From contig NIVC01001884.1 of the NCBI GenBank assembly GCA_002269645.1, forward strand, positions 62,001 through 126,000: a stretch of 64,000 nt of DNA, read 5' to 3'. A program made the position numbers and the translations under genes. Every line of letters begins with the position of its first letter. The stretch's first letter is position 1. Under the pieces are notes generated by a model. The model worked only from the letters and a program-made list of their open reading frames with translations. It ran no database searches and was not told the origin of the DNA. Positions 231 through 20,960 of this stretch are shown here, in pieces. This DNA is from Macrostomum lignano. Taxonomy: Eukaryota.

Positions 231-1352
231 TTAATTGACTGGCCGGAGATTTAGGGTATTTTGCGTGGACAGGTAAAGTAGTCCGTTTACCGGAATCAGT
301 TGATGAGCAGGGTCGAATCGACTGGCGATAAACTCAAGCTGCTCGGTGGTCGCCCTCATGCTAGTTGGTCCCCGAGCCCTCCCTTCTGTGTACTGTAGGC
401 AGTACGAGCAGGCGATTTCAAAACCTGACTGCCTCTTCTGATGTCGCCGTGGCCAGGAAATGGACGCACGCTCCCGGTAGCTGAGCCTCGAAGTGTCCAG
501 GATAAACCGTTTAAGGGCGCGACGGCACTTGCGGAACTTCCGCGCCTGTGTCCCGGGGCTATCCGGCCGTTCGGTGCTGGTCTCTTCAAGGGCCGGCGTG
601 TCGCCCAGGTCTACCCTGAGCAGTGAGGCGTAATCAATGAGTGGGTTTGGCGCAGGCTCAGGCTGGCCCCGCTCTGTCTGGCACTGCTCGGGCTGACGTT
701 GCTCTGGCTGGCACTTTGTTTCGTCTGCGGCCGTCTCCTCCTGCTCGTCTATGGGCTTTACCCCTTCCTCTTGTTGCCGTATCTCCTCCATAACTCCTTG
801 TACACCTACTAGATTATTTTGATTATTATTTTGATGCTGCACTTGTTGATTTGGCACTAACTGCACAATGTTTTGATTTTGCACTGGCATAAACTGCTCA
901 TTATTTTGATGTTGCACGTTAATTTGATTTTGCACTGGCATAAACTGCACTGCGTCTTCGTACTCGTCTTCACTTTCTGAGTCATTCACTCGATGTCATT
1001 CATTCACTTTCTGACTATTGGCTAACTGTTCCCTATTGCACTGCTTCTTATGTTCTTTTGGTTTAGTACTAGCTTCTTCTTCCTGATAATCTGCTTGTGG
1101 TACTCTCATTAAATTATCCCTATGCATAATAAGTTCTTCCTTCCTGGCCTTCTTATTTTGTGTAACTGGCCTAATCTTAAAGACTACTTCTGATAGTTGT
1201 TCTTCAATTTCATAAACTGCTCTTTGCTTCCTGTGAAATTTATTAGCCTCTGTATTAGCAATTACTGGATTATTGATAAATACTAAGCTTCCTACAGGCA
1301 ATATTTTCGTCTTAGGCTTATTAGAGTACTCCTGCTCACGGTTTTGTTGCAC
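231..1352 (-). pseudogene. Integrase C-terminal domain plus a long acidic/Gln-rich Pol extension (element 1)
   Basis: GSLVFINNP...YEIEEQLSEVVFKIRP...HRDNLMRVPQADY aligns by eye with the element 3 integrase tail. A short duplication near 985-1010 shifts it into the 252-aa ORF at 231-989. Confidence 0.7.
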
Positions 1353-3527
1353 TAACTTTAATCTTCAGTGTTGCATCAGTGTCTAACACAAAATAAACTT
1401 GGGGGTCTGTATTAAACTCTGGGTAAGCAAGCACTTCTTCGGAACACATCCGTTTCTTCAACAACTCAAAGCATTCATCATAAATCCTGGTCCATTTGTC
1501 CTGGATACATTTGATGTTCTTCTTAGTTAACTCACAGAGTGGTGCTGCTACCTCGACAAAATTTCTAACGAATTTTCTATAGTAAGTACAGAGTCCGAGA
1601 AAGCTTCGAAGCTCTGTCACAGATTTAGGTTTCGGCCAGTTCCTAATTGCTTCTAGTTTCGACGCATCTCTCTTAATTCCTGATTTGCCTATGACGTGTC
1701 CTAGATATTGTAATTCTGATTTGAAAAGGTGACATTTCTTAGCCTTTAGTTTCGTGTTAGCTTTGATTAGTCTCTTGAGCACTTCTTTCAGGTGTTCTAG
1801 ATGGGCTTCGAAATCTGTACTGTAAACTATTACATCATCTAAGTAAGCTATGGCGAACTTCTGTGCAATGTCCTTAAGAACTAAGTTCATGCACCTCTGA
1901 AAAGTTCCTGGGGCTCCTTGCAATCCCATTGGCAATACTTCGTACTCAAACGAGCCTCGATGTAAAGTTGGAAAGCTAGTCTTGCAGTTATCTTCTTCCT
2001 TAAGAGCTATCTGATAATATCCCGAAAATAGATCTAACGTAGAGAATTGACTGGCTCCATGGAGACATGAAAATGTTTCATTGATATTAGTTATTGGATC
2101 CGGAAAGTACTCCGATTTATTGTTTAGTGCTCGATAGTCGTTAACTAATCTCAGCGAACCGTCTTTCTTAGGTACTATGACTAATGGAGTCGAGTACTGC
2201 GAGTAACTAGGCCTAATGATGCCTCTAGCCAACATGAGATCTAACTGCTCATCTACCTCCTTGATCCAATGAGGTGGGAATCTTTCTAGCTGGTATCTGA
2301 ACTGGGTTGTTGTCCTTCAAGATAATCTCATGAGTGACTAAATGCGTTCTGCCTAAGTCTAATTCAGGCTGCGAGAAAGCTGCTGAATGTTCCTTGACGA
2401 CCTCGATCACCTTTTGTCTCTGCTCCTGAGTCAGTTCAGTTCCTATGTTAATCTCACTAATCCAATTTTCTGACTTCTCCTGCACTTGACTGATCTTTTC
2501 TCTGCTTCCGCAAGACTGCGTGCTCCTATTCTGCTCTTCTTCTGGCTGTTCCTTCAGATAGTTAAGCTCGCTAGCTAAGAGTGGTTTAGCCATCCCAACT
2601 AATGCTGATGCTGGTACTCTAGCTTCCTGTGAACTGTTGTTAATCACTTCTAAATAAGCTTCCCCTTGTCTTAGAGTTACTAAACTTGGCACTACGGTTA
2701 CTTTTTCTGCTCTAGTCTTTAATCCTGATCTGAGTGGCTCAACAACTGATGGCACTCCAAAATTAGTTTCTCTACCTGCTGCTAATCTGACCTTGACTAA
2801 TCCTGAACTATTGTCTTTTTGTCTTCTTTTGTCGTCTTTTCTGCGACATAGATTCTCCTAAGCCGAGGCTTAGCTCTGGTTGATCGAAGCGGAATTCTAG
2901 TTTCTTGTTTCATGGTTAGCATTCCTGCATCGAAGTCAATGGTAGTACAATATTTTGGACAAACGTCACACCTATTACATTGTCTACATCTGCGTCACAT
3001 AAGAGAAACTCAAATTCTTCCTCGAAATCGCCAAATGTTGCCTTAATAACTACGAAACCCTTAATTGGAATAGGCTCTTCCATAAAGGAAACAATTCTAT
3101 TGTCCCAATGCTTAATTAGATGCCTATTCTTGCCAGTGAAAAGATGCTTCCAGGTTTCGCGTCCTAAGATATTTCTTTTACTGCCAGTGTCTAATAGATA
3201 AACTATTTCCTTATTTAAAATGCTGCCAGTGATGTACGGATCGTAACTTTGCTTTTTAGTTTGTTCAATTATTTTTGGTTGTTTTAGCTGCTGCTTGCTA
3301 GAATAAGGTTGTTGCTGTGGTGCGTTTGAAAAGTGCTGAGAATAAATGTTTGGCTGATTAAATGATTGATTAAATGTTTACGCATGAGTACTGTTATACA
3401 CTGAAGAATTCAATTCACTAGTTACAGAAAAAGTATCGCTGCTATTTACAGGTTGTGAGGCTACAGACTGTGAGGGATCTACTGCTGGAAAGCGTTGCCT
3501 CCGACGCTTCCGTCTACTCCGTTTCCC
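1336..3527 (-). pseudogene. pol: pro-pol of element 1: aspartic protease, RT and start of RNase H
   Basis: My translation gives YLLDTGSKRNIL (DTG at 3183-3191) and NVIGVTF. ORF 1336-2235 has YSTPLVIVPKKDGSLRLVNDYRALN, YLDD and VLDTDA. Premature TAA at 3378 and frameshifts near 2955, 2760 and 2240. Confidence 0.88.
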
Positions 3528-6502
3528 GAATTCTGCTTCTGAGGGTAATGTGGCTGCGGATACTGCGGCTGCATCTGCTGCGTTATTGTTGTTGTTGTTG
3601 TAGATGTCTAGCTGCTTTCCGGTGGTTTCCTTTCCACCACTCCTCCATCCCCTCCAGCAGCTGTCCAGAACCGGGCAGGCCACCACGTGCTCGATGGTCT
3701 CCTCCTCCATGCCACACTGCCTGCAATTTCCATCCTGCTGCAGCCCGATTCTCTTTCTAAACGCTGCCAGCTCCAGCGAGTGTCCCGTACGCCATCTTCT
3801 AAAACTAACCTCCTCCTTCCTGCTCGTGAACTCCGGTTCTTTCCTTGGTCCCTCCGAGCCGCCGTACGTTGCCCTCATCCTCTCGTGCCTCCACACCTTC
3901 CTTCTACTCCGCCTCCTCGCCATCCTCGCCATCGTGCTCGCCATGACTCCAATTCCTTCATTGCTCACTTCCCTGACCGCTCGATTAGCCCATTCGTCCG
4001 CCACTTCGTTCCCTACGATCCCGCAGTGGCTCGGTATCCACAGCATCACCATCTCCTGTGTGCATCACCATGCTGCAGACGATCGAGTTCTTGCTGGTCT
4101 TTTTTATAGCTTGGATCCCGCTTTTGCTGTCTGTCGCAATCACAGCTTTGTGCCAGTTGTTGTTAATCGCCAGCCATCTGATTGCCTCCTTCAACGCGTA
4201 CAGCTCCGCCTGCATCGAGGACGCGAGCTGTCCGCCGGCCACCATTTGCCTCTCGACCACCGCGCCGTTATCGTACTTCGTCACCACCACGCTTCCCCCT
4301 CCTTTGCCTCACTTATCAACCGAACCATCCGTGAAAATCAATATGTCCGCTCCGTCGCAAGCCGCTCTTATCCTGCTCTCTCCCATCCTCCTGCATTCCT
4401 CCTTCGTGTCTGGCCTTCCTCCCTCGTCATCGAATACCACGTGTCGTAGCTTGATCCATGGTGGTTCCTTTTCCGCCTCCGACAGCCTCGGCAGGTCGAC
4501 TTCCCATTCTGGCAGGTATCTGCGCGCCCAGGTCATCCAGCTGTCCCTTCTGAGCCTACTGACCGGTCCTTCGGTTGCAAGCCTCCATCTAATCGAACCC
4601 TCTTTCGCTCTCATCAGCCTATCCATCTTCCTCACAACCCGCCATCTTGCCAGCGCCTCCAGCTCATCCGTTCCCGACTCTTCCCTGACTCCGTCGATGG
4701 GGGTCGTGGCGAGCAGCCCACCGATTATTCTGGTTGCTCTGCGCTGCGTCACCTCAAGCTTGTGCCAGCACGCTCTGCTGATCCATGGCATCCATGCCGT
4801 GGCCCCATACATAATTTTACTCTCGATGAGGGCCACGTACGTCTGCCTGAGGAACCCACTTCTCCATCCCCAGTCACTTCCGGCCAGCCGTCTCATTATC
4901 TGTAATCTGCTTTTACAAGCTTTAGCCACCTCTTGCACGTGCTTTGCAAAACTCAGCCTCCTATCGTAGGTCACTCCTAGGAACATGGGGTGAGACACCC
5001 ACTCCATTTCTTCTCCGTTGATTCTGATGCTGATCTGCTTCGGCTCTTTGCACTTGCTACTCAGCACAAACAAGGTAAGCGTACATTTCTTGGCCGCTAT
5101 TGGTAGCCTCCATTGCGCACTCCACTCCTGCACCACACCGACCGCCTGTTTGATGCTGCTGGCTGCTTCCGCCTCGTCTTTGCTACACGACCAGCATGCG
5201 TAGGTCATCCGCGAAGCCACTCACCTCCATGTTCGGCATTCCCTCAATCCTCTGCAGCAGATCGTTAATAAAGATGATAAACAAGATCGGCGACAGCACC
5301 GATCCCTGCGGCAGCCCCTGCCTCATAACCACGCCTGCGCTATCTCTGTCCTGATACCTCACTCTGGCCATCCGGTTTTCCAGCTAACTTCTAACCCACT
5401 TCACCAACTTCGTGCTCAGGCCTTGCTCAAGCATCTTCCAAAGCAGCCCATGTCTCCACACTTTATCGAAGGCCCTCTCAAAGTCAAAAAGGGCCAGCAC
5501 TCCTTTCTCCCCCATCTGGAATGCGTCTTCCATCGCTTGCGTCAGCCTCAGCAGCTGGTCCTCGGTGGATCTTAGCCTTCTGCTGCTGCTATGCATCCTT
5601 CTGCTATGCATCTGCTGCTGAGCCGGGTACCTATGCTGGTTCTGCGGATGTGGCTGTTTACAATTCTTAGCTAAGTGACCTAGCTTGCCACATCTGTTGC
5701 ACGTCACTGGTGGACGCCTCTGCTGATTCTGGCCTTGCTGCTGCTGACCTGACGGTTGCTGCTGCTGCTTGACCTTTTGCTCAACATTCTGATGGTGTCG
5801 GAGTAACTCCTGAAGCACCTTCTGCTGATTCTCTAGCGCCTCACTCTGTTTGCGGACTAATTCCTTCAAGCCGTTCTCAGCCTCGTCTCCTCTAGTTGCC
5901 TTACACTGCTGCGGGTCTCTACCTCGGCGAGACATAGCGTACGCCATTTCGATACGTCGCAAGACTCGACGTGTCTCTTGAAGCGAGTTTACCTGAGCTA
6001 GCAGAAGCTTCTCTCTAGTCTCTGGAGCAACCCTAACACCTCTAATAAATTATTCCACCACCTTCCTGTCTCTGATCGTTAGTTAGATGGGGAAACGCCC
6101 TGCATGCTACCAAGGTAGCTCTGTTAGCTTCTCAGCGTAGTCATCAGTGCTTTCAGTTTTGCACTGGAACCTACTACGGAACTCTTCCCTAGCTTCTTGA
6201 GCACTACCTACATGCGTAAACCGCTCGATTAGCCTATCCTTAAATTCTGCGTATGCTAGATTAGGATCTAAATTTAGCCTTGTCACGATAGCGAACGCTG
6301 ACTGAACATCTAAGTTAGACAGTAGCTCATTCATCCATTCAGCTGCTAGTATCTCATCTGCGATACACCTCTGCTCAAAAGCTTGAATCCACACGTCTAT
6401 ATCCTGATTAGGCGTGTACTTTTGGATCCTAATATGTTTCCTAATGTCTAGCCTGTCTCTAATGCCTTCAGCCAGTGCTTCTACTACGTCATTAGCTTCC
6501 AT
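3479..6502 (-). pseudogene. gag: gag of element 1, split by the LINE insertion
   Basis: Capsid-like N-terminus (WIQAFEQRC...LIERF) at 6107-6502 and knuckle CNRCGKLGHLAKNC. The gag frame resumes after the LINE as QQMQPQYPQPHYPQKQNSGN...FQQ* ending at 3479. Confidence 0.8.
3582..5606 (-). mobile_element. 5'-truncated I-group LINE (RT, RNase H, CCHC) with a (CAA)n tail and 12-bp TSD
   Basis: Motifs FDFERAFDKVW, GLPQGSVLSP, FADDL, IFTDGS, AELYAL, TDSKS, WIPSHCGIVGNEVAD and CRQC...H...C. TSD TGCATCTGCTGC at 3570-3581 and 5607-5618. Confidence 0.9.
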
Positions 6503-6951: not shown

Positions 6952-7497
6952 TGGACAAGCGTGGTACCTGCAGTCTAGGCTTACTGGTTTTGTCTACTTT
7001 AGAACTTAGTGGATTTTCGGGGTATATTGGTAGATTTCGCTGCCACCAGTTTTCGCTGCCTTCCCTAATTCTGGTATTCAGATTTAAAGAATGGAGTCAG
7101 GACACCAACGAGATTTCAACAATTAATAAGGTTTTAATAAAAAAAGAAAAACGTTAACGTACAAAAGATTGGTTACATTAATTCCCCTTAATTCCTATTT
7201 TCCGTTTAATTGTGCTTGGGCAAGACTCCCATTAGTTTAGAGGCGAGACTCCTCTTGTGCAATCCTACTTTATAATTTACCTTTTATTTCCTTTTCTTAC
7301 CGAATTCCTTGTTATTCGCAAGACGCGCACGCAGGATGCTTTCCCTAGAGCCCAACTGCTCTGTAGTTCTTAAGGATCCCGAAAACTAGCGATTTACCCC
7401 TGCTCTAATTATTTCCCTGGGTTAAAACTACTGATAGTAGGCAAAAAGCATATTTCCCCGCAACTAATTCCCGTTCCTAAAATAATGCTCTACTACA
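6952..7497 (-). repeat. 5' LTR of element 1 (about 546 bp, TGTAGTAG...TTGTCCA)
   Basis: 3' end fixed by CA two nt before the PBS. 5' end inferred from TGTAG at the point where a PHD exon is cut off. Shares motifs (ccgttcctaa, ggagtcttgcc) with the element's leader. An internal TGTAACCA at 7177 is an alternative start. Confidence 0.55.
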
Positions 7498-7724
7498 CTA
7501 CTCATGTTGTACCGGAGGTCCTCGTTCGATAACTGTGAATGCATGCGTCATGAAACCATTTTGAACAGGTGTCGCAATCCGTCTGAAAAAGTAAAAAAAA
7601 ACAGGTCAATATAAACTTTTTATTTGTATAGTCGCATTAAGTACATACTATGATCAATACAAATAACACCACAAATTTAGCGTCCCTTTAACAAACAACA
7701 AAAAAGTACCATTAAGCAAATTTT
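7170..7724. repeat. About 554-bp direct repeat, copy 1 (copy 2 at 18816-19369)
   Basis: The copies are identical by eye except for one A in a poly-A run. Confidence 0.95.
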
Positions 7725-8293
7725 TGAAATACTTTTAATTGTTGTCTCAGCTCTCTGTCGGATCTGCGTCCGAGAATTCTAAGATTAAACAATGAGCGGC
7801 AAGTCCGACTGTGTTTTCCTGCGGTGTTAAACCTTCTCTTGAGATGGTATATTTCCAATCTAAATTACTGATGGAGTTCACGCAAATACAAAAGATGTAA
7901 GCTTCTTAAGTACAAAGTATGAAGCAGTCAGAAACTGAATTTATCGATACTTATCAGTACTCTCGGCTGATCTGGTGTTCGAGGCTAATGCCTGTATTGC
8001 TTGTCGATCAGGTGTGAACGGTAGATTTGATTGGCCTGGTTTCTATCAATGTCCTTAATTATTTTGCCAATAGGTCGGGAGTAGAGGAAATGGATAAAGG
8101 GTCTGTGAGCTGGCTAGAGTGTAAGAAGTACAAGGGGAGTTCCAAGAGAGGTCTAAGGACTGCTTCGTACTTTCGTGCATTGAAATACAGCGCGATGTTA
8201 GGCTGCTATTGGTAGCCTGCGTTTAGCGAATCAGCAGATGGAAGTGCATAGGTGGAGTTATGTGCTAAAACGCATGCGGTGGAAATGGCTACA
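7725..8293 (-). repeat. Candidate 3' LTR of element 2 (TGTAGCCA...GTATTTCA)
   Basis: Preceded by the purine tract GAAAAAGGGGCAATGAAA (8294-8311). Ends in CA exactly at the junction with the duplicated flank, with ATTAAA near the end. No second copy in the window. Confidence 0.5.
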
Positions 8294-8946
8294 TTTCATT
8301 GCCCCTTTTTCAACGAGCGAAGGTCTCCGAGCTCTCGAAAATTTTCTAAAAGATGACAAAACGGAGGAGCAAAGTGGAGTGTAATATGGTACATTGCTTG
8401 GGGTTTTTTGTAAAAATTTTTTTCGATCAAAATGGAAAATGGAGATTAAGGAAGAGAAGGAAAGATGATAAAGAGGAGGAGCTTGGATCAAGAGAGAATC
8501 GGAGAACGCGGTGTGACTATGATAAGTACCGCATGGAAGGTGGAAACATTGATGAAAGTTGTAGTGGCGAGACGGAACGGGGCTGGGGAGGGGGGGGTTG
8601 CGCGAAGTGTGAAGAGACGCGCGCGAGGGGGGGTGATAAACGGGCGAAGGAACAAACAAGACTGCGGTAATAAAATAACTGGCGGGGATCGCGAATGAAA
8701 AGTACGTGCATAGAATCGATAAAGCGTACATTGCTGTGCGGGGCGGGGTGATAATCGGAGAAGTAAAATTGGAGGTCCAAAAGGCGTATTTAAAGTCAAA
8801 ATTTAGAGAGGGAGAGGGATCGCTGGCTGCTGAGATCAAGGTTAGTGTCATAGTCTAGTGTTCTTTTCAGTTGTAACCGGTAAGTAATAGGCTAGTCCTA
8901 GCGTTTCTTAGGTTAGTTTTTTGCAAGTATTCAGGAAGTGATCAAC

Positions 8947-9150
8947 ATGGGAGATCTCGTCCTCGGCCGGGAGCAGTTCCGTGAGCTCGACCAAGTAGCC
9001 TGGACGGCCAAGGCTGGATTCGGACTGGGTGTCGGCGCCATCGCGTTGATTTTCGTCGTCCTGGTTGTCTGGTGTTTGTGCAGGTGCTGCTGTCGGAGAC
9101 ATCATCGGCAGTCGAATGCAGCGGCGACGGTTCGCGAGACCGAGGTGTAG
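8947..9150 (+). CDS. 67-aa single-pass transmembrane protein, antisense within the 3' region of element 2
   Basis: aacATGG start context. Translation MGDLVLGREQFRELDQVAWTAKAGFGLGVGAIALIFVVLVVWCLCRCCCRRHHRQSNAAATVRETEV. Upstream TATTTAAA at 8787, GTAAGT donor at 8880, TTCAG acceptor ending at 8934, GTAAGT donor right after the stop. Confidence 0.55.
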   Translation: MGDLVLGREQFRELDQVAWTAKAGFGLGVGAIALIFVVLVVWCLCRCCCRRHHRQSNAAATVRETEV

Positions 9151-9787
9151 GTAAGTAGTAGGGTAGGCGGTCTCAGCAGCCTATTCGCGGCGGAACTGAC
9201 GCTGTCGGTGATGATGCCGCGGTTTTGAACGATCCACCGGCCCTTTTCAGGGCCACCACCTGTAATGATGTTGTACATTTGCTGCTGGTGTCACTAGAGT
9301 TGTCTGAATGGTGTCGTTGTCGAGCCAGTCGAAGTGTAGGGCAGGGTCGGGCTGGATCAGGTTGAGTTGAGCGGGACCGTTGTCAGGACGTTTGTGTCTC
9401 AAAGAGACGAGCAAGAAGAAGGAGAGAGAAGGGGATCAAGAAAGTCGACTTGAAGTCGCCGTAGTTTGTGAGAAGAAAGTGAAGAATGATAAGTAAGCAG
9501 TCGTTATTTTGTAAGAACAAATATATGTCTTGTTGTGGCATAAATAGATATTGTAATCATAACTGGGTGTGGAAAATAGATGCCTAAATTACTATTTTGT
9601 TCTGTTTTGTCTTGGAATAGTTGTCTTGAGTCTTGAACTAATCTAACGCTAAGGAAGAAGTCAAGTGGATAAAAGTTTTAAAATGGGTGTCTGCGGGTAC
9701 TAAGAAGAAGAAAGTGAAGGCGGGAAGGTTTTGCTAAACTAAAATAACAATAATGGTAGCTTTTCGGTCCATTCTGTGCACGCGTGA

Positions 9788-12658
9788 TCACTCAGGATTG
9801 GCGTTGACGTAGACGTTGCGCGAACGTAGCTGATAGCGTGGTGCTGGTGTCGGTGTTGTTGGTTGAGTAGATGTTTGGTCAGATTGATCTGGGTCGTTTT
9901 GCGTATCATCAGTCTGCTGGCTGACCGTCTTTGTCAGCGGCTGTTGGTGGTTGTGGTGTTCTTGAGTCAGCGTCCGGGTGAGTTGAGGTAGAAATATCTC
10001 AACCGGGAGTTGATCAGGTGATGGTTTCAACTTGGAGGCGTGCGTGACCATTGGTGGAACATCCAGCTTGTTGATGTCCTGTATTAGAGCGTTCTGCGGT
10101 GATACCCACTTAAGGAGACGGAACGGTCCTCGATAAGGGTTAGAAAACTTTGAGGCTTTTTGTCCGGAGATCTCTAGGTAACAGCGAGAACCAGGTTGTA
10201 GTCGGTAAGTCGTTGGTGGAGTCTCCTCATTATGTCGTCGGGCTCGCTCCTCTGCAGTAGCGTGGAGGTAATGGAGGGCGACATCTCGAGCCAGAGTAAT
10301 GCTGGAGCAAATGGTTTCCAATGGTTTTATGTTTTCGGAGTAAACAGAGATCTGGTGATCAAGGATTCGCGTGCTCGGAGCTTGGAAATCGCGAGCAAAG
10401 AATAGGTAAAATGGTGATTCGCGCATCACAGTGTGGGCGGCAGTGTTGAGGGCGAGCGTCACTGCCGGTAGGTGCTCTATCCATTTGTCTGGCTGGTCGT
10501 GCACGAACGTAGTGAGTGCCTGCTTCAGTGTTCGGTGCGCTCTTTCGACGAAGTTGCTTGACGGCTGATAGTAGGAGGTATAGATTAGTTTAATTCCGAG
10601 GGCTGCCATATAGTCTCTGAATTCCGTAGAGATGAACTGTGGTCCGTTGTCTAGGATGATGTTAGCAGGTATGCCAGCGAGTGCGAAGACATGGCGAAAT
10701 AGGTGTTCACACACCGTTGACGATGTTGTGTCAGCTAGTGGGATTGTGAAGAGAAATTTGCTAACTCCGCATTGTGCCGTCAAGATGTACTTGTAGACGT
10801 CTCGCTGATGGTGTGCAGATGGTAGTGGACCGACCAGGTCGATGGCTAGGTGTGAGAAGACGTTAGCGAACTTAACTGCTCTGAGTTCAGGGTGGATTTT
10901 TCGACCAGGTTTCGCTCGATGGCAGATTTCACATTTCTTGACGTAGTCCATGGTGTCATTGTAACAGTTCGGCCAGTAGTAGTATCGAGAGAGCCGTAAC
11001 CAGGTTTTTTCAAAACCGAGGTGGCCGCCAAACGGTGAACTGTGACTCTCATTTAGTAGGGCCTGCTGATATTCGGTTGGGATTACTAGTCGCAGGTTGG
11101 AATTGCCCTTTGCTGACTCATAGTAGAGTGTTTCGTTCGCGTAATGGTAATTGTCAATGTGATTCCGTACATATCTCAGGTCTCTCTTTGGTAAGGTTTG
11201 CGACTGGTCCTCACCATCTCCGCTTAATAGAAAAATTATTGTGGCATATAGCGGTGATTGTTTGACGGCTTCCCGAAGTTTTTGAAACGTGGGGATCGGA
11301 TGCAGCAGTTGTACCTCCGGAATTCGCGATAGGCAATCGGCAACGGTATTCGCCTTTCCGGTAATGTACTTGAGTGTAAACTGATAATCCTGTAGATATA
11401 GAATCCATTTTTGTAATCGCCGGGACAGTGGTTGTTTGTTAGCGAAAAGCGATTGCAGCGGCTGGTGATCAGAGTAGATGGTGAACGGCTGGTAAGAGGC
11501 ATACAAGAAGACATGGAGTTTCTTGATCGCCCAATAGATCGCATAGGCTTCTCGTTCGATTGCCGGGTATCGTTGTTCAGTGGCCGATAGTGTCTTCGAG
11601 ATGTAGGCCACAGGTTGTTGGTGTCCTTCGGAGTCTACTTGGGAGAGTACAGCGCCGATAGCCGTATCCGAGGCGTCAGTGTGGAGGACATACGGCTTGT
11701 AAGGGTCCGGGTGGACTAGTCGGATGTCGGTGGTGAGCATATTTTTGAGTAGATCGAATGCTGACTGCTGTTCCTTGTTCCAGATTATCTTTTTCGTCTT
11801 GGATGCGTTTCGCAGGGCGTTGAGCAGTGGTGCGACTATTGTGGAGTATCCCTTGATGTGCGTTCGATAGAAGTTCGCCATTCCTAGAAAAGATTGTAGT
11901 TGTTTCACTGTCGTTGGGATCGGAAATTTGTTGATTTTCTCAACCAGGGATGGTGCTGGTCTGATGCCGTCTTCAGAGACTTGAAAACCAAGATATTGAA
12001 CTTCCGGTTTCGCAAAGACACATTTTCGAAGTGAAATTCTAAGTCCATGTTGTCTCAGTTTGTGTAGGAAGTGTTCGAGCTCAACCATCATGCCGTTAAA
12101 GTCTCCAGAGATTAGCAGTATGTCATCCAGATATGCGATTAGGTTTGGTGAGTCCGCAGTTAGTAGCGAGACGAGACGACACATGATGCTTGGGCTTGAT
12201 TTGAGACCTTGCGGAAGTCTATTGAATTGCCAAAGAAGTCCGTTTGGCGCAATGAAGGCTGTGTACTTTGAGCTCTGTGGATCCAGTCGAACTTGATAGA
12301 AGGCGTCGGCGAGGTCACAGAGAGAGAACAGTTTTGCGCTTCTCAGCCGGTGTAGTAGGTCAGGTATTTTCGGAGGTCGTATGCTTGGCGTGCTAATGAT
12401 CTTGTTCAATCTGCGGAAGTCGGCAACGAGGCGGAGTTGTCGTCGGCCTTGTTCATCGAGTGTTTTCTTTTCGACAAGTAGACATGGGCTGGAGTATTCG
12501 GATTCACTCGGGCTGAGGATGCCTTTCCGGACGAAGTTGTTTATTAGCTCGTCAAAGCGCTCCTGTAGGCCATGTGCGATTGGGAATGGACGTGATGTGA
12601 TTGGGTCTGAATGCGGGTGGACACTAATTTTGGCTGTGTATTGCGTCGTGCAGCCCAT
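9788..12658 (-). CDS. pol: RT-RNase H-integrase of element 2 (open frame, catalytic motifs intact)
   Basis: YSSPCLLVEKK, DFRRLN, YLDD, LHTDAS, H-H-C-C (HSSPFGGH...CEIC), IDLVGP, LDNG, NFVER, and GPY/F-type YRGPF. Confidence 0.95.
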   Translation of the reverse strand: MGCTTQYTAKISVHPHSDPITSRPFPIAHGLQERFDELINNFVRKGILSPSESEYSSPCLLVEKKTLDEQGRRQLRLVADFRRLNKIISTPSIRPPKIPDLLHRLRSAKLFSLCDLADAFYQVRLDPQSSKYTAFIAPNGLLWQFNRLPQGLKSSPSIMCRLVSLLTADSPNLIAYLDDILLISGDFNGMMVELEHFLHKLRQHGLRISLRKCVFAKPEVQYLGFQVSEDGIRPAPSLVEKINKFPIPTTVKQLQSFLGMANFYRTHIKGYSTIVAPLLNALRNASKTKKIIWNKEQQSAFDLLKNMLTTDIRLVHPDPYKPYVLHTDASDTAIGAVLSQVDSEGHQQPVAYISKTLSATEQRYPAIEREAYAIYWAIKKLHVFLYASYQPFTIYSDHQPLQSLFANKQPLSRRLQKWILYLQDYQFTLKYITGKANTVADCLSRIPEVQLLHPIPTFQKLREAVKQSPLYATIIFLLSGDGEDQSQTLPKRDLRYVRNHIDNYHYANETLYYESAKGNSNLRLVIPTEYQQALLNESHSSPFGGHLGFEKTWLRLSRYYYWPNCYNDTMDYVKKCEICHRAKPGRKIHPELRAVKFANVFSHLAIDLVGPLPSAHHQRDVYKYILTAQCGVSKFLFTIPLADTTSSTVCEHLFRHVFALAGIPANIILDNGPQFISTEFRDYMAALGIKLIYTSYYQPSSNFVERAHRTLKQALTTFVHDQPDKWIEHLPAVTLALNTAAHTVMRESPFYLFFARDFQAPSTRILDHQISVYSENIKPLETICSSITLARDVALHYLHATAEERARRHNEETPPTTYRLQPGSRCYLEISGQKASKFSNPYRGPFRLLKWVSPQNALIQDINKLDVPPMVTHASKLKPSPDQLPVEIFLPQLTRTLTQEHHNHQQPLTKTVSQQTDDTQNDPDQSDQTSTQPTTPTPAPRYQLRSRNVYVNANPE

Positions 12659-15600
12659 ATCGGTTGGCAGGAGGGCCAGTTGTCACGAAATCGGGATAGA
12701 ATTTCAACTACTTGTTTCCGTTGGTCCGGTGATAAGTGTTGATTCTGCTCATCTAGTTGTTTTCTGATAAGGTCTTCGTCGCTTTTTGTCATATCAGGAG
12801 TGACATCCAAGGCGTTGATTTCTGTTGTGGCTGGCGCTGAGGCTAGCGTATAGTCTGCTGGGTCTGATAGTGCGCCGAGATGAGTTCGGGCATATAGCGT
12901 TACGGGTTGAAGTGTCGGGTTTGAAATCTGAAGCAGTATTGAGCGTCCGGTTTTGTCAGTCTGGCATAATGATGCTGCTAGAAGTAGCTTGTAGCGTTGC
13001 ATCGTATGGTCATTTGGTATAAATAGGACTGGCTGTAGCGGTGTGCCAGGTGTGGACAATTCGGCTGACACCCATGTTGTTGTCTGTGCTGGGATGTGGG
13101 TGGCTTTCGGAAGTTGGACGTTGACTGTGTTCGCTGGAACAGTCATCGTACTGAGCATCGGAAATGTTGTACCATCGATTTGGGCTTCCGATTTGTTATA
13201 GTCGATCGTTAGTGGTATATTGAGCGTCTTGAAGGTCTCTACTCCGAGGATGAGATCATATTCTTTGGACATGTTGTCCAGAACGAAGGCAGACATTTTG
13301 TGTTCCTTTGAGCCAATCAGTATGCGGAAGCTGGCTTCTTTCTTAATGTGGATCAGTTGTCCGCCTGCACATTGCACGTGAAGTGAGTGTGGTGTGATCT
13401 TGGCGTTCAGTTTCTGTGCAAAAGTCGGTGAGATGCAACTAATCGAGGCGCCGCTGTCGATGAGAGCCGTGCATTTGTGTCTTGTCGCTGGAGGCATGGT
13501 GCACCATAGTGTTATCAACGTGCGCGTGGTGAGATGTTTTAGGACGGTGTTGTATGCGATCGGCCATGGAGGAACCGGTGGTTTAGGCGCTGGTAGTGGT
13601 TTCCTCGTTGTCGTAGAAGGTGTCGGTGTTGGTTCGGTCTGCTGTGCTGTCGAGGTTATTTCGATTGGCGGTGCTGACGGGGCGGCTGGCGGAGCCCGTC
13701 GTGGCGGTGATGAGTTTAATAGTACCATTGGTAGTTGGTTTGGAGTTCGAGTGGGTGAGGATGCATGGCGCCGTCTATTCCTTGGGGTATCTGTTGTTCG
13801 GAGGACCATCAGACGGTGCGTACGTCCGTATCGTACCGTGGTCGCGACGCAGAAACGACCAATATTGCAGATGAAGATTAGTAGCGCGGCATATACAATG
13901 ACCGCGGAGCTGAACAGAAAACGTTCCATGTGGTTGTCGCGGAATCGTTCCCAATTAAAGATGGTGGTGCTCCAGAGATTCTTAAATGCTTGTGTAGCGT
14001 CCAGTCTGAAGCTTGAGGCGTCCGCCAGCAGTTCTTGGCGGGTTTTGTTGTTGTTCAGCTTAAAGACAGTAACTAGGAAGTCTCTTGTTTGCATGAATTG
14101 TTCCATCATGTCGGTTACGGTGACCGGACTTCGCAGAGTACTGTAGTTGACATCGCCAATGGGTGTGAAAATGCTCCGTCTCAGGTCGCTATAAAGTGAT
14201 TGTAGAAGGTACGTTTCGTCGGTGACCTGATGTGAGTCTAGTTCGCGAATGTCGCTGAAATTGGTCGTTGCTTTGAAGATAGAGGTATTTTTCGGTAGAT
14301 AGTATCCATCTTGATATTCGCACGGTATTAGTGGTGGTTTGGCGGTTGAGACGATGAGCGTGGTGGTATCCAGATAAGCTAGTACGCTCCTGTTTTGTAG
14401 TTGAAATTTCATAGGTGGTCGCGTATAACATCTATTGGACTTGTACTCCGGTTGGACGAATGTGAAGTCGTAAAGTGGTTTGCATTGATGTACGAAAAGG
14501 TGACCAGCGATCGACTGAGCGTATAAGAAGCGGTCGTTGAAGAGTTGTCGTGCAGCCAGTGTCGGATTGGTGTAGTACAGTGTGCGACTGTATCTCAGGT
14601 TGAGGGCGTACATTTTGCATTGTGTCTTAGTAAGTTGCGTGTGTAATGTCTTGAGGTCTTGGTGTAATTTCATCTCGAGGGCTTGTAGGCGGCTGGAAAG
14701 TAATTCTGCTGAGGCCAAGTTTGTAGATAGTTGAGGTGCTGATTGGTTGTCGGCGGGCGTTTCACTTGAGCGTCGAATACGTACTTTGTCTAACGTCGGC
14801 GGTGCGTCTCGTTGTAAATATGGTATTGCCAGTGGATCATATTGATATTCTTCGGTTTGTGGTGTTGTGACGTCCGTTGGCGGATCGATTGACATTGTGT
14901 GGGTTCTTCGGCTTGTCAATGGAGTTAGAGCAGTTTCCGTTAATCTTGGAGGTTCCGATGTCATCACTGTCGATGTTTGCGGTTGCGTTGTGGTTGTGGA
15001 GGCCACCAATTGTGTCGTTGGTGTAGGACTGTCCGTGATTGGTTTCGTCGTGGTCGTCTCTTGCGTTGTTGGATCAGTTTTCGTCGTCGTTTGGTGCGTA
15101 GTCGTTCGGGTCGTGTCGGTCGTCGATTTTACGACTGTCGTTGTAGGACTTGTAGGATTGGTTGATGTCTTCAGCGCATCTGTTGTTGTTCGTGTGGTCG
15201 GCGTCGATTTCAGCGTAGTTGTGCTGGTAGCTGTTGTGGTGGTACTCGTCCTTGGATTTGTTAATGTTGTCGATGTCGTCGGTGTCGTTGATGTTGTCGG
15301 TGTCGTCGTCGTTGTCGATGTTGTCGATGTTGTCGGAGTTGGGGAAGTTGTCGAAGTTGTCGCAGTTGTCGAAGTTGCCATGGCGATTTGTTTGTAGGGT
15401 AGTGAACGGCTAGGACGGGATTTTGTTTCTGCCGTACTGGGAGTGGCGTCCGATGACTGGTTTGTCTGAGCAGTCGGAGTTGGAGGTGTTGGCCTTATCG
15501 CATTAAGGAAGTGTTGTTCTTGTTCAAGTACTTCGACGTAAAGTCCTTGCTCGGAAAGGTAAAGCTTTTTGGTGCCAGTGGAGCAGCTAAGAGTGTGCTG

Positions 15601-16722
15601 AAGTGGTGTAGGTGCAAATGTTAAAGCTAGCGTTTGGTCGTCGTTGATGAAAAAGTTGGAGTGCTGTAGTCCATTCAGCGCGCGGAACGGTATTAATGAA
15701 CAATCTGATTGTGGTGGTACATTCCAAGACAACGTTAGTTTTCGCTCGCCTGCTGCGTGGAGAGTGGCGACGGCCGGTGGAGTTAGTTGTTTCCAGGCCT
15801 CTGTCAGAAGCTGATGTGGTAGATTAAAACGCATCATCTGTTCCACAGTTGTCGGGATGGTGCAGCCTTTTGTTGAATAGACACAATGTTTGATTGGAAA
15901 CGCCAGTGATTCCATCGGATCTGTTGGACTAGCAAAAGCGGCGATGTTAGTAATCAAGGTGGATGCCGTTATCGTTTGAGTACGAGAGGCGAGGCAGTTG
16001 TCCAGCAAAGTTGTCTGTATGGCTGACCGGAATATTTGTTGGCCAGAAACTGTGGCTACTATTTGTAGTTGGCCATCAGGTGAATTTCTGGACTCGACCC
16101 ATTGTAGACAAGCGAGTGGCGTTGTCGGTTTCGGTTTCACAGTTATGTGAGCTTCACGAAAAGTGCGTAGGTGTGAGCCAAGACGATTGCAGTTTATAGT
16201 TATCTCTTCCCGATAACAAATGTTCATCATTATTCGGGTCTTTGCTAGGTTAGAGGTGTAGAGCCGTAGACGCATTGGGATAGCTCTTGTTTCTTGCGGG
16301 TTGAAGGACTCGCACCGTATTTCGGTAGGGATCTTGAAAATTCGAACTGGGCCGTTGAGCGGGCAGACCATTGGTGTGTCGACAAATGTCGGGTGATCGA
16401 GTGGTGCCGTTCCGTTACGTGTTTCGACACTTCCGATCAGAGTGGTGATCAGTAAACCAAGGAGTAATACGCCTAGTTGACCGTGAGTGTTTGGATGAGT
16501 CGTCTTGCGGGCCGGTTGTCTCAGAGAACGCTGAGTTGTGGGCGCGCAGTCTGGGCAGTCGGGAGTCCAGGGGACGACCTGGATGCCCATGACTTCGGCC
16601 TTGGTGCTCTGCTGTCGGCGCTTAAGGGCACGCAGGAGATTGTATTGCGGTCCAGTCCCGGTGAAGTAGTATGGTCCACTACTTACTGGAGTAGACACAT
16701 TGACTTCCGGCTTTGATTCCAT
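12544..16722 (-). CDS. Fused envelope-like glycoprotein plus aspartic protease (1392 aa)
   Basis: Hydrophobic signal aa 82-101, Cys-rich ectodomain, Thr/Pro mucin aa 411-625, RPSR and RIRR furin sites, NPTLAARQLF...AGHLFVHQC, TM aa 935-953, then ALIDSGASISCI (D at 13456-13458) and LILGVETF. Confidence 0.85.
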   Translation of the reverse strand: MESKPEVNVSTPVSSGPYYFTGTGPQYNLLRALKRRQQSTKAEVMGIQVVPWTPDCPDCAPTTQRSLRQPARKTTHPNTHGQLGVLLLGLLITTLIGSVETRNGTAPLDHPTFVDTPMVCPLNGPVRIFKIPTEIRCESFNPQETRAIPMRLRLYTSNLAKTRIMMNICYREEITINCNRLGSHLRTFREAHITVKPKPTTPLACLQWVESRNSPDGQLQIVATVSGQQIFRSAIQTTLLDNCLASRTQTITASTLITNIAAFASPTDPMESLAFPIKHCVYSTKGCTIPTTVEQMMRFNLPHQLLTEAWKQLTPPAVATLHAAGERKLTLSWNVPPQSDCSLIPFRALNGLQHSNFFINDDQTLALTFAPTPLQHTLSCSTGTKKLYLSEQGLYVEVLEQEQHFLNAIRPTPPTPTAQTNQSSDATPSTAETKSRPSRSLPYKQIAMATSTTATTSTTSPTPTTSTTSTTTTTPTTSTTPTTSTTLTNPRTSTTTTATSTTTLKSTPTTRTTTDALKTSTNPTSPTTTVVKSTTDTTRTTTHQTTTKTDPTTQETTTTKPITDSPTPTTQLVASTTTTQPQTSTVMTSEPPRLTETALTPLTSRRTHTMSIDPPTDVTTPQTEEYQYDPLAIPYLQRDAPPTLDKVRIRRSSETPADNQSAPQLSTNLASAELLSSRLQALEMKLHQDLKTLHTQLTKTQCKMYALNLRYSRTLYYTNPTLAARQLFNDRFLYAQSIAGHLFVHQCKPLYDFTFVQPEYKSNRCYTRPPMKFQLQNRSVLAYLDTTTLIVSTAKPPLIPCEYQDGYYLPKNTSIFKATTNFSDIRELDSHQVTDETYLLQSLYSDLRRSIFTPIGDVNYSTLRSPVTVTDMMEQFMQTRDFLVTVFKLNNNKTRQELLADASSFRLDATQAFKNLWSTTIFNWERFRDNHMERFLFSSAVIVYAALLIFICNIGRFCVATTVRYGRTHRLMVLRTTDTPRNRRRHASSPTRTPNQLPMVLLNSSPPRRAPPAAPSAPPIEITSTAQQTEPTPTPSTTTRKPLPAPKPPVPPWPIAYNTVLKHLTTRTLITLWCTMPPATRHKCTALIDSGASISCISPTFAQKLNAKITPHSLHVQCAGGQLIHIKKEASFRILIGSKEHKMSAFVLDNMSKEYDLILGVETFKTLNIPLTIDYNKSEAQIDGTTFPMLSTMTVPANTVNVQLPKATHIPAQTTTWVSAELSTPGTPLQPVLFIPNDHTMQRYKLLLAASLCQTDKTGRSILLQISNPTLQPVTLYARTHLGALSDPADYTLASAPATTEINALDVTPDMTKSDEDLIRKQLDEQNQHLSPDQRKQVVEILSRFRDNWPSCQPIWAARRNTQPKLVSTRIQTQSHHVHSQSHMAYRSALTS

Positions 16723-16753
16723 GGCCTTGTCGGCACCCGTCGGCTGCGGTTGT

Positions 16754-17933
16754 TCAGTACTGGGGGGGTGCGCTTGTCGTCACGACCTGTAGGGCGTTCA
16801 GCGAGGCTGCTGGGGCTCGCGGTGACGGCGATCGTGAGTGGCTTCCGTTTGATCTGTTTGGTCCATAGGAATTTCTGTTGGAGAAGCGGACCTGTCGTCT
16901 GTCTGAGTGTTGATATTTGATTGCGCGGCATTCTCTGGTATCGTGAGATGTTGTGCGGTGGAATTTGCAGTACTTTTTCTCAATCCCACGAGTGGAAGGT
17001 GATTGTGAGCGCTGGCGTTGAGGGTTCTGGTCAAATCTCCTTTGACGGCAGTCTCTGGCGATGTGGCCGACCTTGTTGCAGTTGTAACATTCGCGACTGG
17101 AAGGTCGTCTGGGTGGTTGAGGCATAGGCGTCTGGACAGCGGCAAGTGTAGGTTTTGTAGTCTGGTTCCCGGACTCTAGGGCGGCTAATCGTTTTGTGAG
17201 CTCGGCCATTTCAGTGGAGGCTGTGGCTTGAGTATTGTCTCCGATTTGTTCTGCTCGGATGGCCTGGCTCAGTAACTCTTGTTCCGTCTGGATTGGGATA
17301 CGCATCAATTCTCGGCGAATGTAGGGTAACGTCCCGTTCAGAATATTGGCAATCAGTGTCGTTGTAAAGTCATTGTCCCGTTGGCGGATTACAGCCTGGT
17401 TGGGCGGTTCGTGGAGGCCGTCGGGAATTGGCTCCGGTGCGATGGCGGGGTATACCGTGCGGAGTTTTTTTGCGGACGTCACTGAAGTATTGAGTGAACG
17501 ACTCGCCGGGCTGTTGTCTTCGATTTGCAATTTGTTGCAGAAGTGAGGTGGATCCGTTTGTCAGGTCTCGAATGCGGGCACGCATGTGCTCAAGCATGCC
17601 CGTGTAGGTACCTTGTTGCGCGGGCGTCAAATTGGAGAATTCGATTTTGAGCAAATCGTTTAAGAATCGCGGGAAAATTCGAAGCTTAGTATCATCATCC
17701 AAGTTGAAAGTGCGGGTGGCCAGGTCAAACTCCATGACAAACGTCGCGAAGCCGTGCAATTGATCGATATCCTTCAGGGCTTCGCGGATTTCGTTGATCG
17801 TCGATGATGATACTGAAGGCGTCGGTCTTTGGGCTGGCTGCGCGGCACCAAGCTGTTGTAGTAGTTGCTGTTGCTGCAGCTGCTGTTGCTGTGTAAGGTT
17901 TTGGATGAGCTCTTGCAGCTGGTTGGCATCCAT
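16754..17933 (-). CDS. gag: gag of element 2 (one +1 shift at an A7 run)
   Basis: ATG at 17933 (MDANQLQELIQ). Capsid-like QQPGESFTQYF, knuckle CYNCNKVGHIARDC, and a second CKFHRTTSHDTREC motif. Confidence 0.88.
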
Positions 17934-18815
17934 GATGATTTCCGGTACAAACAGATAGGCTGGTGGTGAATAACCAGAGGGCCAAGCAGTTGGTGAAGTA
18001 GTTACGTCGGGAGTAGAGCCGGAAAGTCGTCGGGTACTCGAGGTTGTGTTGTCAAGTGCTTGGTCTGTGTCAGCGGCTGGCGCTGAGTTTCGTTGCAATT
18101 TGCGCGATTTAGCTGTAGGGGATTGTGATGCTGCTCGTCGACCAGAGCGTAAGAGCATGCAGGATCCTGCTATCAAAAGAAGTGGTTCTGGGTTATAATA
18201 AGAGTATGAGAAATAATTGAATTAAGCAATATTTTGAGAATACACTGAGCATTATAGCATCTGGGTCGTGTTTATCTGGACTATCCCTTTGGTCATCATT
18301 TTGTAATATCGGTATGACGTGTAATGAGAATTCTGACATGTATGCACACGAGTGACTACTGCTTAAGTAGTATCAGACGAAAGTCAAACAGAATATATGT
18401 GTATCAGCGTATTGATCAAAATTGTAGCCTGTAGACTTTTGTAAACGAATACGAGCATCTATTGCAAAATAGGCTATACGACAGGGCCACAGACTACAGT
18501 GTGGGCTTGCTAGGAAACGGTACGGCGGATGCCACAGGTGTGTTTGTGGGCTTAGTACTTGAGACGATACAGCGAGTGCCACAGGTGCGTTTGTGGGCTT
18601 ATTGCGCGAGTTCGGTGCACGAACTGTAATGTGTGATGAGTTGCCAGCCAGGAATGAATGTCGCGGCAGGGCGACCGTCGCAGCTTGTGCGACCTTTTAA
18701 CCGGAATCGCCGATTTGCGATCTCCGACCAGCTCTTCGGGCACAGCTTGTGTGGCCGGGTTAACAACTGAGTGCCACTACCGAATTAGTGGCCGCCACGA
18801 CTGGGTGGCTTCACG

Positions 18816-19369
18816 TGGTTACATTAATTCCCCTTAATTCCTATTTTCCGTTTAATTGTGCTTGGGCAAGACTCCCATTAGTTTAGAGGCGAGACTCCTC
18901 TTGTGCAATCCTACTTTATAATTTACCTTTTATTTCCTTTTCTTACCGAATTCCTTGTTATTCGCAAGACGCGCACGCAGGATGCTTTCCCTAGAGCCCA
19001 ACTGCTCTGTAGTTCTTAAGGATCCCGAAAACTAGCGATTTACCCCTGCTCTAATTATTTCCCTGGGTTAAAACTACTGATAGTAGGCAAAAAGCATATT
19101 TCCCCGCAACTAATTCCCGTTCCTAAAATAATGCTCTACTACACTACTCATGTTGTACCGGAGGTCCTCGTTCGATAACTGTGAATGCATGCGTCATGAA
19201 ACCATTTTGAACAGGTGTCGCAATCCGTCTGAAAAAGTAAAAAAAACAGGTCAATATAAACTTTTTATTTGTATAGTCGCATTAAGTACATACTATGATC
19301 AATACAAATAACACCACAAATTTAGCGTCCCTTTAACAAACAACAAAAAAGTACCATTAAGCAAATTTT
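18816..19369. repeat. About 554-bp direct repeat, copy 2
   Basis: Matches 7170-7724. It consists of MULE intron and PHD exon sequence plus the first 327 bp of the element 1 LTR. Confidence 0.95.
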
Positions 19370-20960
19370 AAAATTGGGATGATTGCTGAAATAATAAACC
19401 AAGTAAGAATAATATATGAAAGTTATCATAAGGCGATACAGATAGGAATTTTCTCGAGTCCCATTTTCAAGTTTTAAATCAGGCTCTTGCTTTCCAAGCA
19501 ACTCACCCAATTATCTTCTGTCTGTTTTTCGTCTTGTGCGGGACCCTCCTCTTTCCCGCACATCCAGCATAGGTCGTCGGAATTAGGTGCCCTCTGCAGT
19601 AAGTCACACCACATCTTCATTCGCTTCAAAGACATTACTCTAGGCGCTGAGTTGAAGTTAAGTGGCTTGTTGGACAGAATCCTCTTCGCAAATTTAACGA
19701 CAGGAACACCGCAACTGCTACCATCTTGCTGGAGCGCGTGATGCAAAGTGGTTGGCTTCAATTCGCACCAATGGAAGCAGCGCCTCAAAGAGCTAGTAAA
19801 AATAGGAAAGGCAAAATTAAACTTAATGTAGAATTTTATTATAAGCTGGTAAAAAAGCGTACAAGACTAGTAAAAATCTGTATTTATTGTTCAAAACTGT
19901 TAGGAAAATTTTAAACATCAGTGAGCTAATTTATAAAGATCAGTGAAAACTTTATCGTCCTGTCTTAAACAGCTATACAGCAGCCAAATAAATTATAAAA
20001 GCATGTAACTCAGTCTGTTTCTGCAGCTTGCAATTGATGATTTGAAGCTTTGAAGCTATCGAAGTGGGATTGGTTATCTATATAGAATATTTAATTGACT
20101 TTGATCTTATTCAGCAGATTTGTGCACCTGTTTCATCGTCCTTCATAGCCATCTGTATGCATATTATTTCTTCTAACGTACACGACAGAGAGACTGATAT
20201 ACTATCAAACGTCTATTGAGGTAAAGCTATCCGATTTTAATTGAATTTTGGCCTTACTTAGCGATAAGACGTATCTATATATGACGCACAGTACAAAATC
20301 ATTCTATCCAAGCTGCAAAAACACAACTAATGAAAAACGAGCAATCGCATGCTCGTGAAATTTGATTTACATGAATATATCTCCAATCATAGAAGTAAAA
20401 CATGTCGCATTGTGAAAAAATGCTTGTGAAAAATCTATGTCGTTCTCAAAAAGCATAAAAAGACAACAATCGCTTACTTAAAATTAACGCAGAACGGTTC
20501 GTTCAAATTCTCTGATGACGCGAGAGGATCCATAACAGTTACGATTCCCTTGATAAGGTCGACAAAAAAGGAGCATGAAATTGTCATGTCGATAGACCGT
20601 GCCGATAATGATGGTCCTTGCCTACAAAGAGAAGTTGGTAACTGAGAATTTCAGCAGTTAGAAAGTCTTGAGCACTTAGTTTTCCAAATATTTTCCACAT
20701 TAACTTTAAAACAAGCCGGAGTAATAAAGTTTTATTGACCACAATTTTAGACCGGTAATATCAGAAGCAAAAGGACAAGACTTTATACCTGAAGCAGTTT
20801 TTAATTAATTCTGGCTTATAATCATTTTGCTCTCCATGGAATATCGCATCCACTTCGTAATGCATAAGGGAAACACCCCGTCGTGCTGAGGGGCAGCCGC
20901 GGCGATTAGTAAGTTTAGAATCTAAATGAAAATTTTGAAGAAACATTCTTAGATTCATAA

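Follow-up and report, generated by a model that had tools for sequence, protein, structure and literature searches.

An antisense membrane-protein gene with a putative histone-type 3′ end in a Ty3/gypsy element of Macrostomum lignano

The host element and its antisense open reading frame

The analysed stretch, 64,000 nucleotides of contig NIVC01001884.1 from Macrostomum lignano (hereafter the window), carries a Ty3/gypsy element on its reverse strand with the gene order gag-env-pol. Antisense to this element, between the pol stop codon and the polypurine tract (PPT), lies an ORF encoding a 67-aa microprotein (Table 1). The parts listed in the initial annotation were all present, namely the TATA-like box, the GT and AG of the candidate intron, a favourable ATG context (A at −3 and G at +4), the ORF itself and the GTAAGT behind its stop codon. 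The protein likewise had the noted composition, with an MG start, a hydrophobic segment, the Cys cluster, a basic patch (RRHHR) and the ETEV terminus. A structure model of the protein contained a helix over residues 8-59, with a pLDDT of 89 over residues 31-40 and a mean of 64.7.

Table 1. Features of the element and of the antisense gene (window coordinates)
Feature	Position	Strand	Basis or remark
3′ LTR, 574 nt, TG..CA	7725..8298	-	many other genomic copies
PPT, directly ahead of 3′ LTR	8302..8311	-	sequence
TATA-like box TATTTAAA of antisense gene	8787..8794	+	sequence
Candidate 55-nt leader intron, GT 8880 to AG 8934	8880..8934	+	not seen spliced
67-aa microprotein ORF	8947..9150	+	
Predicted transmembrane (TM) helix, residues 25-45	9019..9081	+	hydropathy; N-out/C-in by charge, 5 K/R after TM
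Juxtamembrane Cys cluster (CLCRCCC, 5 Cys), putative palmitoylation site	9073..9093	+	
C-terminal ETEV, class I PDZ-ligand pattern	9136..9147	+	
GTAAGT donor-like site right after stop	9151..9156	+	no joint seen
Putative histone mRNA 3′-end module	9226..9270	+	host histone comparison, Rfam
TGAACG flank of module	9226-9231	+	
6-bp stem with TTTC loop	9239-9254	+	
ACCAC after stem, predicted RNA end	9255-9259	+	
GATG, weakly HDE-like, at host-like place	9267-9270	+	
pol: RT, RNase H, integrase	9788..12682	-	Pfam; pol stop at 9788
env-like region, then aspartyl protease, one frame	12544..16779	-	
gag, two frames in window copy, CCHC knuckle	16754..18221	-	

The 3′ LTR was recovered in eight loci (L005-L012), in six of them over the full 574 nt at 93-96% and in two over 532 nt. 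A 555-nt direct repeat (99.8%; window 7170-7724 and 18816-19369) flanks the element; these repeats were considered as LTRs and rejected in favour of the TG..CA sequence given in Table 1. Since the 5′ LTR is missing and the direct repeat lies on both sides, the window copy sits within a local duplication. A search of the genome with pol identified two sister subfamilies, B (73% identical) and C (about 62-71%), as well as a distant, 38%-identical family that also carries env; subfamily A comprises the window copy and two others.

The microprotein gene had been described as lying alongside a conventional env. An env is indeed present, but it is placed between gag and the protease and is not a conventional third ORF. 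This order is shared with the GAG-ENV-POL errantiviruses of Platyhelminthes, for which a gB-type Env is reported (PMC13524379); the main text of that report has no mention of “antisense”, “accessory”, “small ORF” or “Macrostomum”. The gB-type Env model PF24664 matched the env of a relative at E 5e-5, under the cut-off. No PDB sequence match was found for env, the env homolog search returned nothing, and the single-sequence model of env (pLDDT 40) was unusable.

Several further elements were recorded in the window and among the relatives. The env of subfamilies A and B contains a long Thr-rich, mucin-like insert (about 14830-15410 in the window) that is missing from the 38% family. In subfamily C, pol is separated from the antisense cassette by a conserved additional ORF on the sense strand, about 325-395 codons long (e.g., L057 889-1977 +), which is open in 10 of 11 C loci, split in one, and without a Pfam match. 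Short antisense ORFs (58 and 93 aa), Cys-rich and signal-peptide-like, lie close to the element ends in L078 and L049. Elsewhere in the window, fragmented retroelement ORFs matching RT and CCHC occupy 231-6049 (-), and MITE-like 156-nt inverted repeats (96%) with a spacing of 836 nt are found at 20960-22107.

Conservation of the antisense gene and selection on its reading frame

An antisense TM ORF follows pol in 17 of the 20 loci of subfamilies A, B and C, two of the 17 being frameshifted or read through; among the other three loci, two lack the whole region and one has a stop inside the ORF. In the 38% family, none was found in ten loci searched within about 4.4 kb. The initial annotation had staked its proposal of an accessory gene on conservation among copies of the element, and this distribution speaks in its favour. 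The ORF is intact in one of three A copies, eight of nine B copies and 14 of 18 C copies, some of which may be haplotype duplicates. The two damaged A copies carry an insertion in the Cys codons and a 1-nt deletion, respectively. The B and C proteins are 21-34% identical to the window protein, and the order of parts is kept throughout: a short N-terminal part, the TM segment, the Cys cluster, basic residues, an Ala-rich linker and a terminal E-x-x-V. Across the three subfamilies the proteins measure 67-92 aa, with one TM segment, an N-terminal part of 24-32 aa, 4-5 K/R within 20 residues after the TM segment and 5-12 Cys; the cluster itself holds 5 Cys in the window protein and 9-12 in B and C. 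Length variants of the ORF differ by whole codons.

The dN/dS comparison proposed earlier was informative for subfamily C, with too few changes in subfamily B for an estimate. Among nine C copies, the ratio was defined for 32 of 36 pairs, which are not independent, and ranged from 0.08 to 0.54, with values of at most 0.31 in 31 of the 32. Substitutions at codon positions 1, 2 and 3 numbered 299, 217 and 704. Of the six frames, the TM frame alone stayed open in A, B and each of the seven C copies tested; the mirror frame on the sense strand also gave a low ratio (0.33 versus 0.24), but it contained stops in A, B and one C copy. We regard the antisense ORF as a real gene under purifying selection; its product is a Cys-rich protein predicted to cross the membrane once, with a tail of the PDZ-ligand type.

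Copies of subfamily C differ much more in the cassette than in pol, with cassette bins mostly 72-88% identical versus 92-99% for pol and the next 1.5 kb, and dS within the ORF rises above 1. Such a contrast suggests old alleles exchanged by recombination among near-identical elements. The same divergence would also be expected of an interference or counter-defence factor, Vpu-like or acting in superinfection exclusion, that removes or masks a host surface protein and whose alleles diversify by conflict, and a weak Pfam match to Vpu was obtained (E 0.07, under the cut-off). That match, however, reflects TM composition, the divergence is mostly synonymous and a sign of positive selection is absent, and we regard this explanation as unlikely.

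A histone-type stem-loop and the putative antisense transcript

In animals, the stem-loop end is commonly presented as a feature exclusive to the mRNAs of replication-dependent histones. Downstream of the antisense ORF, a stem-loop (9239-9259) that the initial annotation had left unmentioned starts 88 nt past the stop codon. It is part of a 26-40-nt stretch, the sole match when the three subfamilies were compared by blastn between pol and the LTR. A 22-nt pattern built from this stretch matched the genome 157 times, versus none for the reversed control, and of 28 motif sites in the 20 host loci sampled, 19 come after H2A, H2B, H3 or H4 ORFs. Two other readings of the hairpin, one as a splice acceptor and one as a GAAA loop on the sense strand, were dropped once host histone genes showed the motif. 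The remaining nine sampled sites (L128, L131-L134, L140, L143, L145) lacked a core histone ORF upstream in the motif test and could belong to H1, pseudogenes or other non-histone users; the hairpin is therefore not confined to core histone genes even in the host.

The Rfam Histone3 model (RF00032) matched window 9234-9280 on the plus strand (E 2.5e-6) as its only match in the window, at 31.3 bits against a gathering score of 34, a threshold passed by one of 20 sources and missed by the host histone locus L127 as well. The stem-loop is present in antisense orientation in 18 of the 20 A/B/C loci and in none of the ten loci of the 38%-identical, env-bearing family. In subfamily B one stem pair has changed from C-G to U-A in a compensatory manner, and two C copies have a U-G pair. 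On the coding strand, the 6-bp stem, 4-nt loop, G-C at pair 2, U at loop position 3 and ACC(A) tail were all found. The unpaired upstream flank scored like host histone ends (at most 0.06% of element positions were as good), and the downstream (HDE) flank gave a weak match, with 1-17% of positions scoring as well. The stop-to-stem distance is 88 nt in A, 54 nt in B and 47-50 nt in C, versus 65-123 nt for 16 of the 17 host genes. In B and C, the TATA box precedes the ATG by 82-115 nt, and in most host histone genes by 85-98 nt. The word ATCGAT, found near the promoter in A and in four of six C copies and absent from B, was too weak a signal against a background of 11 of 159 tiles.

Judged by its sequence, 9239-9259 is a copy of the host replication-dependent histone mRNA stem-loop. 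Its core is identical to that of host histone genes and the stop distance is short; unlike in histone mRNAs, the module trails a membrane-protein ORF inside a mobile element, with a weak HDE match. A plus-strand transcript is argued for, since the loop and flanks of the module match histone ends only in that orientation. The host encodes the stem-loop-binding protein SLBP (PF15247 above cut-off at nine places); U7 snRNA was not found in the host with the Rfam model. Planarians reportedly have histone 3′ processing (PMC6312358), and a histone-type RNA is described as cut five bases after the stem, without poly(A), and degraded after S phase (10.64898/2026.10.14.759114). No exact match to the stem-loop was present in IMG/VR, and the main texts of the open-access literature yielded no report of viruses or mobile elements carrying a histone stem-loop. 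Within those texts, a mobile-element gene with such a putative histone-type 3′ end appears unreported.

The hairpin might instead be a signal in the sense genomic RNA, its GAAA loop directing packaging or export, or serve only as an SLBP tether, with the microprotein RNA ending elsewhere. The reverse strand folds equally well with its GAAA loop, and a contig of the C513 type (X2, 9081-9484), although unstranded, runs through the hairpin. We consider this very unlikely: read in the plus-strand orientation, the unpaired sequence on either side of the stem matches host histone ends, the distance to the stop codon is kept histone-like, and AATAAA or ATTAAA does not occur within 650 nt past the stop in A and first appears 470-560 nt on in B and C. 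About 400 nt past pol, subfamily B (L053-L056, L061, L062, L067) has another histone-like hairpin, weaker and on the sense strand.

The initial annotation had called the gene apparently spliced. No run containing the sequence was on record as RNA, and 13 were guessed to be RNA. Sequencing data were available as unstranded contigs from four runs, three of them, from two studies, guessed to be RNA and the fourth (X16), of unrecorded kind, taken as DNA. No splice joint at the candidate intron occurred in any of the four runs, among 32 of 210 pieces. Contigs X1 (8823-9065) and X2 (8804-9093) span both intron ends unspliced, and X5 (8857-9155) spans the acceptor with intron sequence retained; X1 and X5 are identical to the window copy and X2 has the variants of the C513 copy. 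The three contigs could be genomic RNA or DNA. Because the contigs are unstranded and their RNA status is a guess, we regard splicing as unsupported rather than refuted. The candidate intron was seen only in subfamily A, where its sites are kept in all three copies; no counterpart was seen by eye in B and C. Loss of the 55 nt would make the TATA-to-ATG distance 105 nt, like that of B and C. The A leader has no upstream ATG, so the ORF would be translatable without splicing.

Also in favour of the intron is P0001, a 67-aa UniRef entry labelled Macrostomum lignano that is 91% identical to the window protein and is the only outside homolog found. Its gene model starts at the base right after 8934. 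Since the host trans-splices many genes (PMC5730564), 8934 could also be a spliced-leader acceptor. Among 11 GTRAGT words on the antisense strand of the element, one has an acceptor 45-70 nt on. The sense strand has a single GTRAGT in the same interval (window 7751-18800), a strand bias that would be expected if the genomic RNA avoids splicing. Cover at 8301-8600 was absent from the three putative RNA runs and present in X16. The putative-RNA contigs start at 8804, 8823 and 8857, and one of them has a loose end resembling an adapter; these starts are at most a weak hint of a transcript start near the TATA box and were not counted as evidence.

The membrane protein and its possible role

The most specific conserved feature of the protein is its C-terminal tail. 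All 23 intact copies end in E-x-x-V, with Glu at −3 and Val at 0. The class I pattern (S/T-x-hydrophobic) is found in 19 of them (the window copy, 8/8 B and 10/14 C), whereas four of the 14 intact C copies end in EAAV, which is not class I; two more C copies have no stop. Class I PDZ ligands, as defined in PMC4810129, include those of HTLV-1 Tax (TEV) and Env, Ad9 E4-ORF1 and HPV E6, and the Env tail of HTLV-1 links to DLG1 at cell contacts. An S/T-x-V C-terminus is common to these and to the window protein, with no sequence relationship claimed; unlike in HTLV-1 Env, the PDZ-type tail resides here on a separate microprotein.

A search of 1.84 billion representatives gave 16 matches including P0001; of the other 15, the 11 examined had a generic TM-plus-Cys look, one of them being labelled SMIM22. 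Pfam returned only sub-cut-off TM matches and BFVD no fold match. In the ESM Atlas the best score was 0.89, and scores under 0.9 are leads only.

The initial annotation had likened the protein to the FAST fusogens of reoviruses. Its size, N-out/C-in topology, basic residues and Cys agree with that class, whereas Gly2 and the Gly-rich TM segment are confined to subfamily A (B proteins start with MA and C proteins with MS, and their TM segments are almost purely aliphatic) and the ectodomain has no Cys. The myristoylation motif MGxxxS/T is absent, A having Leu at position 6 and B and C lacking Gly2. As library searches gave generic TM and Cys proteins, the agreeing traits are common ones, and the case for membership of the FAST class is weak.

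The closest parallels are the sORF2 proteins of Drosophila MDG1-group retrotransposons (10.1101/2025.03.14.642691), described as 63-107 aa long with an ectodomain of about 30 residues. As in these and in FAST proteins, we are dealing with a small single-pass accessory protein, here of a Ty3/gypsy element, with a short N-terminal part and basic residues after the TM segment, and some sORF2 genes are likewise downstream of pol. A fusogen of this kind, passing capsids directly between cells with or without a histone-type RNA end, would fit the size, the single TM segment, the 24-32-aa N-terminal part and the basic residues and Cys that follow; p10-type FAST proteins rely on palmitoylated Cys in place of myristate (PMC12945298). 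It nevertheless seems improbable. There is no conserved myristoylation Gly, the ectodomain is devoid of Cys, and Tyr is absent after the TM segment. Of 2000 shuffles, 143 equalled or exceeded the amphipathic moment of the A protein, and 700-1344 did so for B and C. The long Cys cluster and PDZ-type tail also set the protein apart from sORF2 and FAST proteins. All 105 sORF2 candidates are on the sense strand and the Drosophila elements lack Env, whereas the gene studied here is antisense, has its own TATA box and a histone-type stem-loop, and lies in elements that keep env.

Antisense accessory genes in the 3′ internal region have precedents of other kinds. HBZ of HTLV-1 is an antisense accessory ORF in this region. 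In plant Retand elements, antisense ORFs between pol and the 3′ LTR encode mostly TRP28 or other DNA-linked domains, and a histone-type end was not met in the available part of that report (PMC11963269). Gypsy elements with a small TM accessory gene (sORF2) and elements with an antisense ORF following pol (Retand) are already known; no report of PDZ-tailed or antisense small TM ORFs in gypsy elements was found in the main texts of the open-access literature.

The order of parts in the window protein is that of the coronavirus E protein. An E-like assembly factor or viroporin, oligomeric, palmitoylated and PDZ-tailed, could aid budding or release, and CoV_E was among the ESM Atlas look-alikes. 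It ranked 23rd of 30 there with a score of 0.84, however, the range in which scores are leads only; the almost purely aliphatic TM segments of B and C and the lack of a viral fold match also count against this role, and an antisense S-phase RNA would be a poor supply route for a particle component. We rate it as quite unlikely.

We favour a different scheme, which starts from the antisense cassette that this clade of flatworm gag-env-pol Ty3/gypsy elements has between pol and the PPT. Its product would be a short RNA of the plus strand (about 8815-9259), bound by SLBP, cut five bases past the stem, left without poly(A), and made and kept mainly in S phase; this is probable. Its early stop would keep antisense transcription out of pol. 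In flatworms, the cells in S phase are neoblasts and germ cells, where insertions are inherited. That the element captured a host histone 3′-end module, so that SLBP/U7 processing restricts a non-histone membrane protein to stem and germ cells in S phase, seems somewhat more plausible than its opposite. The protein itself is likely to be palmitoylated and to bind host PDZ scaffolds, and targeting to junctions or polarity complexes, as the initial annotation proposed, is our best guess. It may remodel PDZ-organised contact sites of cycling cells where Env-bearing particles assemble or pass. This role, modelled on the HTLV-1 Env tail with DLG1, is the weakest step of the scheme and would be the most likely purpose of the protein. 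For the complete chain, from histone-type RNA end through palmitoylated PDZ adaptor to cycling-cell contacts for Env-dependent spread, we see about an even chance.

If the scheme is correct, an mRNA of a mobile element would here have a functional histone-type end, which couples an accessory protein to the cycle of the cells that hold the heritable genome. Confirmation of the 3′ end would break the textbook exclusivity of the histone stem-loop. The stem-loop, kept with a compensatory change and as the only conserved non-coding sequence of the region, would show a new transposon route to dividing stem and germ cells. Such RNAs would be under-counted where sequencing and annotation rely on poly(A). 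The module would further offer a natural non-histone substrate for probing the needs of SLBP/U7 processing in a flatworm with transgenesis, and the microprotein would add to the small membrane accessory proteins of Ty3/gypsy elements a third kind, which occurs together with Env.

Outside the elements, an 81-aa TM ORF ending in ETDL was noted at L036 1414-1656 (-) and in L037 and L038, the three being assembly copies of a single host locus near a phosphoglycerate dehydrogenase-like gene; downstream of the ORF comes AATAAA and not the stem-loop. A gypsy pol nearby was rejected as its parent, the insertion being absent from one of the three locus copies. The N-terminal part of the ORF resembles that of the window protein in shuffling (0 of 5000 shuffles), with a genome-wide E of 0.23 and an hhalign probability of 7%, and the ORF is a possible cellular source or domesticated copy of the microprotein gene.
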